Shown here piece by piece: positions 36,243-38,613 of a DNA stretch of 64,000 nucleotides (position 1 is its first letter; each line of letters begins with the position of its first letter). The stretch lies in sequence record PV340561, one strand, 5' to 3'. Made by a program: the position numbers and the translations under genes. Below the pieces are notes generated by a model that ran no database searches, was not told where the DNA came from, and saw only the letters and a list, made by a program, of their open reading frames with translations. Source of the stretch: Escherichia phage PhiR41_1.

Positions 36243-36893
36243 TTACGCTTTGAAAGCATCAGCTAAATAATTGTAGAAATCATTTTTAATGAAGCGATAT
36301 TGCTGAGTACCAGCTTTTGCGATCCCAGCTCCTTTGACTTTTTCAACAAGTCCAAGACGTTCGCAAAGATTGATCAACTGGTTGGCTTGAGTATAGCCAG
36401 CGTCCAATTTAATTTCACACGCTTTTTTAGCTTCATTCATTAAATCGAAAACAGCGCCATTGGTGAACGTGTCGATCTCGTCGTTAATCATATCGATTAA
36501 AGCGAATACACGAGATCCAGACATATCAGCGACGGAATAAACACATTTACCAGCTTTAATGGATTTAACCAGATAAACCAGTTTTTCCAGTGAATAACTA
36601 TTAGTCATAGCATCACGGAAAAATACTTCTGGCGCTTGTTTACTTGCTTTAATCGCATAGTAGAAAACAGAGCATAATTTTTCGTCTTCTACTGCGTTTA
36701 CGACGTTGTTGATGAAGTAAGCAAGTTTAGTGGTCGCAGCTTGCATATTTGCTTTGTCTGCTTTAGTGTGCGTACCATTTTTATAATGGTCGTTATATGT
36801 TTGAGTTGCCAGATCTGCTTTTTCGCGCAGTTCATCGGATACAATGGAAGCAGCTTCAATGATGGATTTTTTAGAAATGATAATGTTAGTCAT
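36243..36893 (-). CDS. hypothetical protein
   Basis: 216-aa ORF. Confidence 0.5.
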   Translation of the reverse strand: MTNIIISKKSIIEAASIVSDELREKADLATQTYNDHYKNGTHTKADKANMQAATTKLAYFINNVVNAVEDEKLCSVFYYAIKASKQAPEVFFRDAMTNSYSLEKLVYLVKSIKAGKCVYSVADMSGSRVFALIDMINDEIDTFTNGAVFDLMNEAKKACEIKLDAGYTQANQLINLCERLGLVEKVKGAGIAKAGTQQYRFIKNDFYNYLADAFKA

Positions 36894-37191
36894 GATTTTA
36901 TTCCTTAGTATAAATATTAAAATTTAACTCAAGAAAGAAAGTGTTTTGCACTCGTTCCTGATGCGTTCAATTATCGATACGCGAAAAAAGATTGCAAGTG
37001 TTTTTTTTAAGTTTTTTTGCAGGGATGAAAGTCCTAGAAATAAAAGTTAGATCGTCGAAGGTGTTCCCTAAATAAATAATAAATTCCGGCTTTTGACCTT
37101 ATATATTTATACGGGGGAGAATTGAATGAGTGTTAAACGAATGGCATGTAAAATAATAACCGGACTTAGCCGATTATTACCCTTATAGAAA

Positions 37192-37710
37192 TTAAAACGG
37201 AAGGATTCGTTCAACCCAATCGAAGAAAATAAGTATTTTTCTACCGTCTTCCAACTTAAGTGTGACTAGACAGGCGTCAACGCCATCTGACGTTCCCTCA
37301 ATTTCGCGACCGTCTGCCATGTAGACCCTTATAGATTTGCCGTTTTGGTAAGCCTGACGACATATCTTAAAAAAGTCACGACGTGATGGCTGATTAACCA
37401 TCTGTTCATTGTTTAGCGTTAGTCGACCTGTGAATGAAGTGTCAACCTCTTCTATGCCCGACTCAATTGTGCTAATGCGCTCAAGAGGGAGCCTTATACG
37501 ATTTGTGTTGCTAAGCGGATCTGGTGTGAGGTTCAGCTTATTTCTTGCGCTCAATAGCCCGTAGACATACATGCAAAACACTTGGCCGTCTTCGAGAGTG
37601 ACTCTTACAGGAAATTTTGCACTCCGCCAGAAGAGCAAGGTGCGCTCAGCATGTTCGTAGTCTCGCGGCCAGACTTCAGCCGGTATGCCGTAGGTGATGT
37701 CTTTAACCAT
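37192..37710 (-). CDS. hypothetical protein (possible tandem small beta-barrel domains)
   Basis: 172 aa; two internally similar segments (VRVTLEDGQVF.., IRVYMADGREI..LVTLKLEDGRKILIF). Confidence 0.45.
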   Translation of the reverse strand: MVKDITYGIPAEVWPRDYEHAERTLLFWRSAKFPVRVTLEDGQVFCMYVYGLLSARNKLNLTPDPLSNTNRIRLPLERISTIESGIEEVDTSFTGRLTLNNEQMVNQPSRRDFFKICRQAYQNGKSIRVYMADGREIEGTSDGVDACLVTLKLEDGRKILIFFDWVERILPF

Positions 37711-37812
37711 AGTCTACCTTTTTAAGTCTTTTTTGGTCATTATATACATCTCTATGATGCGTAGACAGACTAACCGTACATTCCACCAAAAATTGATTAT
37801 GGAATAAGTTTC

Positions 37813-38613
37813 ATGAAGAATGGGGTGAATAAAAAATACTCATTAGCATTGTTAATAGCGGCTTTACTATTAACAGGTTGTGATTCTGATGAAGAGCGAG
37901 CCATAGATCTAGTTGAAAAGGATATTCGCTCTACACTGCTAGATCCTGATGCTGGTCGGTTCACGAATATGCGAGCTATTCAGTTAGGTGAAAATAGCTA
38001 TTCATATATGGTATGTGGAGAGGTGAATGGTAAAAACGTCTTGAACGCCTATACAGGTGCGACCGCATTCAATGCACACATCTTTGATGTTCGTGAACGT
38101 AACCCGATTGTATTCGTTGCAATGGATAAAAGTACCAACTCGGCAAGAGAACGATTACGTTTTGAACGCCAAAATCTAGCATGTAAAGAAAATGGTGTGA
38201 AACTTTATCTGGAAAACGAATCTAAAATCAGGAAGGAAAAAGAGAAAATAGATGATTTAAAAAAAACTCCATTAGGTCAGGCTGTGTTTGATGCTGCAAG
38301 TGATTCGACATATGTGAGTAGAGAGTTGGGCGAATCGAGAGGTGTTAGTGAAGTGTATGCAAGAGAAAATGATAAATATGCTCTTGTTAGCGTCACCAAT
38401 TATGACACTCCTGACTTTTACAAATTTAGGAAAAAAGACAACGGTGAACTAGAACCTGTTAGGGGACTGTCTTATACCGGCTATCCATTCGCGGTTACAC
38501 TGTGCCATTCTGAACAAACAGATTATGACAAATGTATAACAGAAGAAGAAATCAAGTTGCTTCGAGACGAAAAGAATAAGCTCGATGATTTTGTCGTGCC
38601 ACCAGAAGAATAA
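37813..38613 (+). CDS. putative lipoprotein
   Basis: 266 aa; signal peptide with lipobox LLTGC; AT-rich. Confidence 0.6.
   Translation: MKNGVNKKYSLALLIAALLLTGCDSDEERAIDLVEKDIRSTLLDPDAGRFTNMRAIQLGENSYSYMVCGEVNGKNVLNAYTGATAFNAHIFDVRERNPIVFVAMDKSTNSARERLRFERQNLACKENGVKLYLENESKIRKEKEKIDDLKKTPLGQAVFDAASDSTYVSRELGESRGVSEVYARENDKYALVSVTNYDTPDFYKFRKKDNGELEPVRGLSYTGYPFAVTLCHSEQTDYDKCITEEEIKLLRDEKNKLDDFVVPPEE

Follow-up and report, generated by a model that had tools for sequence, protein, structure and literature searches.

At immI of phages P1 and P7, the c4 antisense RNA has its target sites upstream of ant, and Llp of T5 and Cor of phi80, N15 and HK022 are phage exclusion lipoproteins. The FljA family is known for post-transcriptional repression of fliC, exerted from plasmid-borne copies too and across genera; a plasmid bearing fljA(z66) turned motile E. 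coli non-motile (PMC2652032). For canonical FljA, papers cited in PMC2652032 describe fliC mRNA as present while the protein is not made. Phage-plasmids of the SSU5/pHCM2/pMT1 type are frequent in E. coli, Klebsiella, Enterobacter, Salmonella Typhi and Yersinia pestis, and at least 832 sequenced plasmids carry an FljA-like gene.

The order of its backbone genes and its identity to known members make the window (the whole 64-kb stretch of DNA that we analysed) an SSU5/pHCM2/pMT1-type phage-plasmid of Escherichia. Its DNA is 99% identical to that of E. coli plasmid CP025888 and 91% identical to that of phage Cyrano (pLF82); across the gene for a 216-aa protein, it is 81% identical to SSU5. The three ORFs, of 216, 172 and 266 aa, lie where the initial annotation had placed them (Table 1), and the lipoprotein gene is indeed inverted, being the sole + strand gene amid minus-strand neighbours at a variable locus. 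The ‘accessory island’ that had been drawn around all three has to be divided: the lipoprotein is accessory, whereas the core includes the 172-aa gene, the spacer and the 216-aa gene, which hold a fixed position in every SSU5-type element examined, including those with proteins only 24–47% identical. Synteny of the region was the same in 14 loci, among them elements whose FljA-like proteins are 24–38% identical.

Table 1. Positions in the window of the genes and predicted elements of the locus.
Feature	Position	Strand	Remarks
216-aa core protein of SSU5-type phage-plasmids (phrog_1513), candidate regulated gene	36243..36893	-	ORF
5'-proximal stem-loop of the 216-aa mRNA leader (predicted), allele-specific, ‘W’ type here	36929..36961	-	Variable patch 36924-36964
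Sigma-70-like promoter of the 216-aa gene (predicted)	36969..36998	-	-35 CTTGCAA 36992-36998; -10 TCGATAATT 36969-36977
Three conserved non-coding blocks upstream of the promoter	37028..37109	-	TTTATTTCTAGGACTTT 37028-37044; ATTTATTTAGGGAACACCTTCGA 37055-37077; TAAATATATAAGG 37097-37109
Intrinsic-terminator-like hairpin after the FljA-like gene	37149..37188	-	ATAATCGG-CTAAGT-CCGGTTAT plus T-run; conserved CTATAAGGGTA before the hairpin
172-aa FljA-family protein (Pfam PF03614 Flag1_repress), tandem Hfq/Sm-like fold (predicted), without linked flagellin gene	37192..37710	-	
Allelic ‘specificity’ segment of the FljA-like gene, codons ~48-105	37396..37567	-	Distal half of N-terminal Sm-like domain plus linker
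Divergent intergenic region between FljA-like and lipoprotein genes	37711..37812	.	102 bp, 32% GC; 100% identical to LF82
266-aa accessory lipoprotein (phrog_20234), two cystatin/NTF2-like domains (model) bridged by long helices	37813..38613	+	
117-aa secreted paralogue of the lipoprotein N-terminal domain (phrog_2320)	38726..39079	-	Sec signal, ...TVA/KP
Two further accessory ORFs of the slot	39108..40427	-	191 aa phrog_29155; 199 aa phrog_13473
92-aa protein (phrog_1466) and 519-aa UvsW-like DEAD/DEAH helicase, core context	40460..42300	-	Far-side border of the slot; order constant in all loci

The 172-aa protein matches the PF03614 profile over its full length (230.5 bits against a cutoff of 24; E = 1.3e-68; profile positions 1–170 of 170) and is 33–36% identical to FljA proteins, with 36% identity to canonical FljA (E = 3.6e-23 for Salmonella FljA P0091). 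Both proteins carry the N-terminal motif DI[TS]YGxxAE[VI]WPRDY, which reads DITYGIPAEVWPRDY here and nearly the same, DISYGREAEIWPRDY, in canonical FljA. In the AlphaFold2 model (pLDDT 88, pTM 0.85), residues 19–84 and 114–171 form successive repeat units of one helix and five strands each, and the predicted fold is Hfq/Sm-like, with an N-terminal alpha-helix and then an antiparallel sheet of five strands that is strongly bent. The tandem small beta-barrel that the initial annotation had suggested is therefore borne out by structure prediction, and the internal duplication it had read from the sequence is clear in the model, but BLASTP between the two halves was not significant (E = 0.3) and their profile–profile similarity was weak (24 columns, P = 0.0012). 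That annotation did not mention homology to FljA, the phase-1 flagellin repressor. The protein scored far below the Pfam thresholds for Hfq (PF17209, 12.9 bits against 27) and LSM (PF01423, 13.1 against 23.4), a phmmer search of PDB sequences stopped at E of about 1 with no significant sequence relative of a solved structure, and PDB searches with single sequences and profiles returned nothing significant for any of the three proteins. Its PDB fold matches included no tandem counterpart, because the top matches all align only ~60 residues, and neither Pfam nor fold comparison found an HTH, RHH or other DNA-binding domain. Homology and the predicted model together describe the protein as an FljA homologue with double Hfq/Sm-like domains.

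Among the 832 plasmids with the FljA-like gene, 823 carry it at 80% coverage or more; the total includes 342 Klebsiella and 62 Yersinia plasmids, given as non-flagellate hosts, and dN/dS is about 0.1–0.2, Klebsiella-borne alleles included. A flagellin gene was sought by tblastn with E. coli FliC and was absent from the window (best E 0.23) and from the ~1–6 kb flanks of related elements; in place of the adjacent alternative flagellin of a fljB–fljA pair, the lipoprotein gene and the 216-aa gene flank the FljA-like gene. We noticed no invertase among the ORFs listed close to it; a hin-type switch is not universal for FljA, since fljA of pBSSB1 is also without hin. A scan for a distant 164-aa FljA-like clade returned nothing from genome contigs and one locus from viral contigs. 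Canonical FljA fell between phage-plasmid clades in a midpoint-rooted NJ tree that carries no support values, and a search of the available literature found nothing linking FljA to phage-plasmids, SSU5, pMT1 or Hfq-like folds.

The 216-aa protein belongs to phrog_1513 (E = 1.6e-138) and has no match in Pfam, NCBIfam, PADLOC or PDB; its 102 homologue clusters, all without a name, lie on contigs of ~105–115 kb, and dN/dS of the gene is 0.05–0.09. It occupies the same position in loci L002–L012, L014 and L015. In a related locus, L013, the gene is interrupted by IS1. The AT-rich spacer of about 300 bp reported earlier measures 298 bp (36894–37191) at 31.5% GC, against 45.9% for the window as a whole, only 0.2% of 298-bp stretches being as AT-rich. 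The promoter predicted in it by consensus scan (TTGCAA-16-GATAAT) retains CTTG and TCGATAAT without change in 12 elements, distant L014 included. The three blocks upstream are nearly invariant in alignments of 10–12 elements: TAAATATATAAGG is present exactly, in one copy per locus, in 13 of 14 phage-plasmid loci, including the 108-kb IMG/VR contig L015, and a 21-mer from the conserved blocks is unique in the window. We considered and rejected a centromere or origin, as the blocks have no repeats elsewhere in the window and stand directly upstream of the conserved promoter. RNAalifold on the whole spacer returned the terminator and short helices only, with a covariation term of about 0. The blocks are conserved in sequence and not in structure; the terminator hairpin, which has a compensatory variant in L014, is the main conserved helix predicted there. 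An Rfam scan of positions 35000–41000 (E up to 1) gave chance-level matches only and no known RNA family in the spacer.

Within the FljA-like ORF, identity to LF82 falls sharply from 100% to 48–88%, and a mosaic map of L018 also supports a separate allelic segment there. Codons ~48–107 of this gene co-vary with the leader: 39 plasmids have the protein segment in its W-type form; the W-type leader occurs in the same 39 (38 by megablast and L019 by eye) and in 0 of the ~790 other FljA-like plasmids. At the leader position the W type is predicted to fold at −10.2 kcal/mol and other elements have a different, two-tier hairpin, both types folding as a 5'-proximal stem-loop. Between segment and leader lies the C-domain DNA, and 19 records show it discordant, with mismatches of both directions; by sequence comparison, recombination has uncoupled the DNA between the two co-varying parts. 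The co-variation rests on few recombination events, perhaps 3–6, and not on 39 independent ones, and patchy mismatch repair of one long conversion tract could mimic it. For the common-type leader hairpin, a covariation test on seven sequences was not significant (2 compensatory pairs, with 50 of 500 shuffles as high). The leader is also fairly uniform among elements whose FljA-like proteins are 30–35% different, so not every change in the protein is mirrored in it.

The best overall explanation, to which we assign a probability of roughly 0.5, is a core FljA-type repressor module that acts on its neighbour, next to a separate and variable cargo slot. The module would comprise, in order, the FljA-like gene, the terminator, the AT-rich control region with its promoter, the 5' stem-loop leader and the 216-aa gene. 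The 172-aa protein would act as FljA does on fliC mRNA, binding the 5' leader of its target mRNA and blocking translation, and we propose the leader of the adjacent 216-aa gene as its main target. Specificity would be seated in the distal half of the N-terminal domain and the linker (residues ~48–107), and the protein and leader alleles would be exchanged as pairs between elements, in the manner of an immunity or specificity cassette, while repression of host fliC may be an extra activity in flagellated hosts. More tentatively, and with the odds against it, the FljA family may at root be a phage-plasmid regulator, a fused double-Hfq-like protein that blocks translation of its conserved neighbour through a matched 5' stem-loop. 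Its alleles would then be exchangeable ‘immunity-type’ cassettes, perhaps in a lysis/lysogeny or maintenance switch of SSU5/pHCM2/pMT1, and Salmonella FljA would be a captured, retargeted copy.

The slot between the 92-aa and FljA-like genes holds four cassette types among related elements, with lipoprotein or secreted-protein cassettes. The lipobox LLTG/C claimed for the 266-aa product is present: the N-terminus, MKNGVNKKYSLALLIAALLLTG/C, has Lys residues in its n-region and a hydrophobic core, and Cys23 closes the lipobox L-T-G-C; this agrees with the rule-based pattern of a signal peptidase II lipoprotein (charged n-region, hydrophobic core, lipobox [LVI][ASTVI][GAS]C, Cys at about residue 15–35). 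The lipobox is kept in 9 of 9 homologue clusters, across which L20, G22 and C23 are invariant. Inner-membrane retention from Asp at +2 was discarded as a family feature, homologues having Lys at +2. The lipoprotein is confined to 61 PLSDB plasmids, has no Pfam, NCBIfam or PADLOC match and falls only into PHROGs of unknown function; BFVD and PDB fold matches of its two-domain cystatin/NTF2-like model are generic, none functional, and none of its homologues is a virion component. The 117-aa protein is 25% identical to it by BLASTP (E = 4e-6), with phrog_2320 common to both, and the 117–118-aa homologues in L009 and L012 begin at the equivalent ATG. The 191-aa and 199-aa ORFs occur in some related elements only, and the latter is probably 188 aa long, starting from the ATG at 40394; PADLOC found nothing in the way of defence apart from a negligible SspC match on it. 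The slot collects envelope proteins, and its genes are moron-like accessory cargo for which a part in envelope modification or in exclusion would be plausible.

The protein could instead serve lysogenic conversion, as its main or a second function, a possibility that we rate as well short of probable: the orphan FljA homologue would bind the host fliC 5'UTR, as is known only for canonical and z66 FljA (Salmonella and pBSSB1), and leave carriers less flagellated or un-flagellated. They might gain protection from flagellotropic phages, stimulate TLR5 less and bear a lower cost. The family's one demonstrated activity is repression of fliC, the z66 fljA plasmid stopped E. coli motility (PMC2652032), and the PF03614 match is full length. 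The N-terminal motif shared with canonical FljA fits a common partner such as fliC mRNA, which counts against the neighbouring leader as target, and because no partner flagellin accompanies the gene on the element, repression of fliC would go uncompensated. However, elements of the non-flagellate Klebsiella and Yersinia hosts carry the gene intact and under purifying selection, and even very distant elements keep it as a core gene at a fixed position, unlike a host-conversion moron. Its alleles also diversify on near-identical E. coli backbones, even though the fliC leader of the host would offer an unchanging target, and the allelic segment follows the element-encoded leader instead. Our literature search found no paper tying the FljA-like gene to motility. 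The window contains no fliC-5'UTR-like sequence better than E 1.1 and hence no cis decoy, a result irrelevant to a target in the host.

The co-variation is compatible alike with RNA binding and with a DNA operator at the transcription start, and it has no power to separate them. The FljA-like protein might accordingly be a DNA-binding transcriptional regulator, the annotation it bears in many database records, with an operator that overlaps the start of the 216-aa transcript and appears as the co-varying ‘leader’; the variable patch begins directly after the -10 element. We consider this improbable, given the predicted Hfq/Sm-like fold without a recognisable DNA-binding domain, the 5' stem-loops predicted for both leader types, and the post-transcriptional action of canonical FljA in papers cited in PMC2652032. 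The reading of the initial annotation, in which the + strand lipoprotein serves superinfection exclusion or receptor masking and its neighbours belong to the same accessory island, seems to us unlikely as a whole. Nothing that we examined supports or refutes such a role: the lipoprotein is not homologous to any characterised protein of exclusion or to a defence family. The 172-aa and 216-aa genes belong to the core.

If the FljA-like protein is a translational repressor matched to the adjacent leader, the module offers a testable handle on the control of a highly conserved gene. The tandem Hfq-like fold would then give a structural account of how FljA recognises an mRNA leader, and an origin for the Salmonella phase-variation repressor would be suggested. 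Should host flagellin be silenced instead or as well, which is possible by analogy with FljA, clinical isolates with such a plasmid would be changed in motility, H-antigen typing and immunogenicity. The lipoprotein itself is ordinary, swappable accessory cargo.

Like Llp and Cor, the 266-aa protein is a phage-encoded lipoprotein from a prophage-state accessory locus. It differs in having no sequence or specific fold similarity to them, in being ~4 times larger with two cystatin/NTF2-like domains, and in not lying beside receptor-binding genes. As in the immI-type cassettes of P1 and P7, a trans repressor and a cis target near the start of the neighbour's transcript would come in matched allelic types that are swapped between otherwise near-identical elements. 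The trans factor here would be an FljA-family protein and not an antisense RNA, and the analogy is functional only; it is not taken to extend to the 216-aa protein as an antirepressor or to the alleles as determinants of heteroimmunity.

The 172-aa protein and FljA (Salmonella fljBA; fljA(z66) on the linear plasmid pBSSB1) belong to one family over their full length, with the N-terminal motif and a C-terminal FDWV motif in both, and the expected mode of action (mRNA 5' leader bound, translation blocked) is taken from the family. In contrast to FljA, the phage-plasmid version has no linked flagellin gene and no invertible-switch context that we could see, is a fixed core gene in hosts both with and without flagella, and has an allelic segment that tracks an element-encoded leader, not fliC. 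Unlike Hfq/Sm-like proteins, it has two domains fused in one chain according to the predicted fold. Within the SSU5/pHCM2/pMT1(pFra)/pLF82 (phage Cyrano) family, the present element is 91–99% identical in DNA to E. coli members and follows the common gene order (ParB-ParB / helicase – 92 aa – slot – FljA-like – spacer – 216 aa). It departs from other members in joining two slot cassettes, the 266-aa lipoprotein and the 199/191/117-aa set, and from most of them in carrying the rarer W-type FljA-like/leader pair (39 of 832 plasmids).

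The most informative part of the region is an orphan FljA-family protein that belongs to the core of a very widespread phage-plasmid family. Over 35900-39200 the window is 91% identical to Escherichia phage Cyrano (the pLF82 phage-plasmid), its 216-aa gene is 81% identical to that of Salmonella phage SSU5, and 641 plasmids match the interval (best 99%), nearly all of them non-mobilizable and ~105-115 kb long. At the sequence level, these matches place the window within an Escherichia phage-plasmid of the SSU5/pHCM2 type. Gene order is the same in the annotated loci of Cyrano, SSU5 and Klebsiella pJN2-26 (ParB-ParB / UvsW-like helicase, 92-aa, lipoprotein, FljA-like, 216-aa, 67-aa), where the FljA-like gene is labelled 'transcriptional regulator / repressor of phase-1 flagellin'. 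The 92-aa gene directly follows the helicase gene in 14/14 related loci; its sequence pattern, without a family match, suggests that it may encode a small ribbon-helix-helix-like DNA-binding protein.

Features of the FljA-like module and its surroundings in the window and in related loci
Sequence	Feature	Position	Strand
Window	hairpin AGCGCCCACTATGGGCGCT, first copy	35715-35735	
Window	hairpin AGCGCCCACTATGGGCGCT, second copy	~36212-36230	
Window	216-aa gene	36243-36893	-
Window	AT-rich spacer	36894-37191	
Window	diverged patch at start of 216-aa leader	36917-36964	
Window	FljA-like 172-aa gene	37192-37710	-
Window	low identity to pLF82 within FljA-like ORF	about 37661-37265	
Window	266-aa lipoprotein gene	37813-38613	+
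Window	ORF, homologue-indicated start ATG 39079	38726-39100	-
Window	ORF, homologue-indicated start ATG 40394	39828-40427	-
Window	92-aa gene, phrog_1466	40460-40738	-
L005	extra ORF	4029-4328	
L011	extra ORF	4020-4328	
L014	extra ORF	4540-4842	
L018	extra ORF	1608-1787	
L022	extra ORF	959-1258	
L013 (E. hormaechei pMRSN791417_6)	IS1 at 216-aa site	4328-5638	
L015 (IMG/VR UViG_3300045988_137065)	direct repeat GAGCGGAATATATTAA x2	6590-6650	

The 172-aa protein covered the whole Pfam profile PF03614 (repressor of phase-1 flagellin, FljA; E = 1.3e-68) and was 36% identical (E = 3.6e-23) to P0091, the canonical Salmonella FljA. The family is small: when 1.84 billion cluster representatives were scanned exhaustively with HMMER, no more than 29 clusters proved to be related. 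No flagellin gene occurred in the window or in the flanks (about 1-6 kb) retrieved from related elements, and the homologue is thus an orphan. The initial annotation, which placed the three ORFs exactly, had proposed an internal duplication in this protein. The repeat was clear in the predicted structure and weak in a profile-profile comparison (24 columns, PVRVTLEDGQVF...G vs. SIRVYMADGREIEG, P = 0.0012), but undetectable when the two halves were compared by BLASTP (E = 0.3). The protein is predicted to be a tandem Hfq-like regulator. A further FljA-like copy, P0072, lies on a chromosome-sized (5.2-Mb) E. coli contig; it is 48% identical overall, with frameshifted-looking stretches, and could represent an integrated copy, a decaying one or a misassembly.

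By tblastn, the FljA-like gene was found in 832 PLSDB plasmids (coverage at least 80% in 823), with hosts including Klebsiella (342), Escherichia (229), Enterobacter (92), Yersinia (62; pMT1/pFra) and Salmonella (60). The most diverged syntenic copies were 37-38% (Klebsiella L014) and 24% (L015, a 108-kb IMG/VR contig) identical. Because its position was unchanged in every fetched locus and pairwise dN/dS was ~0.1-0.2, Klebsiella-borne alleles included, the gene is, on sequence criteria, a core gene of the element that is kept in non-flagellate hosts.

The spacer was, as first described, very AT-rich (298 bp, 31.5% GC vs. 45.9% for the window; lowest 0.2% of 298-bp windows). In an alignment of 12 elements, the ~340 bp preceding the 216-aa gene contained a terminator hairpin 3' of the FljA-like gene, for which L014 has a compensatory variant, and three blocks that hardly vary (TAAATATATAAGG, ATTTATTTAGGsAACACCTTCGA and TTTATTTCTARGACTTT). 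The 216-aa gene has a conserved promoter (CTTG..-17-TCGATAAT) and a leader of ~55-75 nt. The 13-mer TAAATATATAAGG was exact and single-copy in 13/14 phage-plasmid loci compared, including L015. Rfam gave no match in the spacer, and RNAalifold returned the terminator with no further conserved structure. Its sequence conservation marks the spacer as a control region of the 216-aa gene, not filler. In L015, the most distant related element, the direct repeat lies immediately 5' of the TAAATATATAAGG block. In some elements an additional ORF of ~60-100 aa separates the FljA-like gene from the terminator/spacer, which makes this site a further point of insertion in the module. The two AGCGCCCACTATGGGCGCT hairpins each follow closely on a minus-strand gene, the 76-aa ORF in one case and the 216-aa gene in the other, and look like a reused bidirectional terminator.

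The 216-aa protein is limited to SSU5/pHCM2-type elements, is unnamed everywhere and had no match in Pfam, PDB or PADLOC; its gene is very conserved (dN/dS 0.05-0.09). Because IS1 disrupts it in the Enterobacter plasmid L013, leaving 555 nt, the gene is dispensable for plasmid carriage; the FljA-like gene and spacer blocks are intact there despite the insertion.

The slot between the 92-aa and FljA-like genes holds cassettes that differ among related elements. SSU5, pFra, a Salmonella plasmid and EC00678 have a 140-aa lipoprotein in the orientation of the FljA-like gene; a divergent 145-aa lipoprotein is found in Klebsiella, a divergent 262-266-aa lipoprotein in the window, LF82 and E. hormaechei, and a 179 + 191/204 + 117-aa set in Klebsiella AR_0046 and Cronobacter. 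Both of the latter two types are present in the window, and L014 and L015, the most distantly related elements, lack a cassette at this site. The proposed lipobox was borne out: the 266-aa protein starts MKNGVNKKYSLALLIAALLLTG|C, with L20, G22 and C23 invariant across all homologue clusters. The view of the region as an accessory island with an exclusion lipoprotein held only in part, the FljA-like gene being core, and we consider an exclusion role for the lipoprotein rather unlikely. By comparison with homologues, the mechanical calls of two slot ORFs probably start too far upstream; the products would be 117 aa long, with a Sec signal that ends TVA|KP, and 188 aa long, the length annotated in pLF82.

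The window is 98-100% identical to pLF82 across the helicase, 92-aa, 199-aa and lipoprotein genes and the divergent intergenic region. Identity drops abruptly to 48-88% within the FljA-like ORF and recovers downstream, with a second diverged patch at the leader. In recombinant elements, leader type tracked FljA-like codons ~48-107. L018, L019 and L020 combine the window's (W) middle segment and leader with an LF82-type C-terminal domain, and in pAMPD1, p09EL50 and M21170 the N- and C-terminal parts are W-type, but the middle segment and leader are of the common type. The W middle segment occurred in 39 PLSDB plasmids, which all carried the W leader (38 by megablast, the 39th by eye), and no other PLSDB plasmid had that leader. 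C-domain DNA, physically between segment and leader, disagreed with them in type in 19 records (11 in one direction, 8 in the other). Escherichia albertii plasmids of 62-64 kb, about half the usual size (CP043239/43/47/51/55, NZ_CP034165, NZ_CP126909), contain the entire region (~98% identity), including an intact FljA-like gene, lipoprotein and W-type leader, and are apparently shortened phage-plasmid derivatives retaining the module.

The FljA-like protein thus appears matched to the leader of a conserved neighbour gene. Such co-variation is expected if a regulator is selected together with its cis target. It reflects a small number of independent recombination events and reads alike for an RNA or a DNA target; patchy repair could mimic it. 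Both leaders are predicted to fold into a 5'-proximal stem-loop, and compensatory changes in the common type were present at a statistically non-significant level. We favor an RNA-directed post-transcriptional regulator (probability roughly 0.75), and rate it about as likely as not that it acts mainly on the 216-aa leader. Retention in non-flagellate hosts argues against host flagellin as the only target, and silencing of host fliC, alone or in addition, is less likely than not.

The literature searched yielded no mention of the fold, of the gene's core and syntenic status or of the protein-leader co-variation; the FljA homology is already in public annotations. In a midpoint-rooted NJ tree without support values, canonical FljA sits between phage-plasmid clades, which hints, short of proof, that the FljA family is centred on phage-plasmids.
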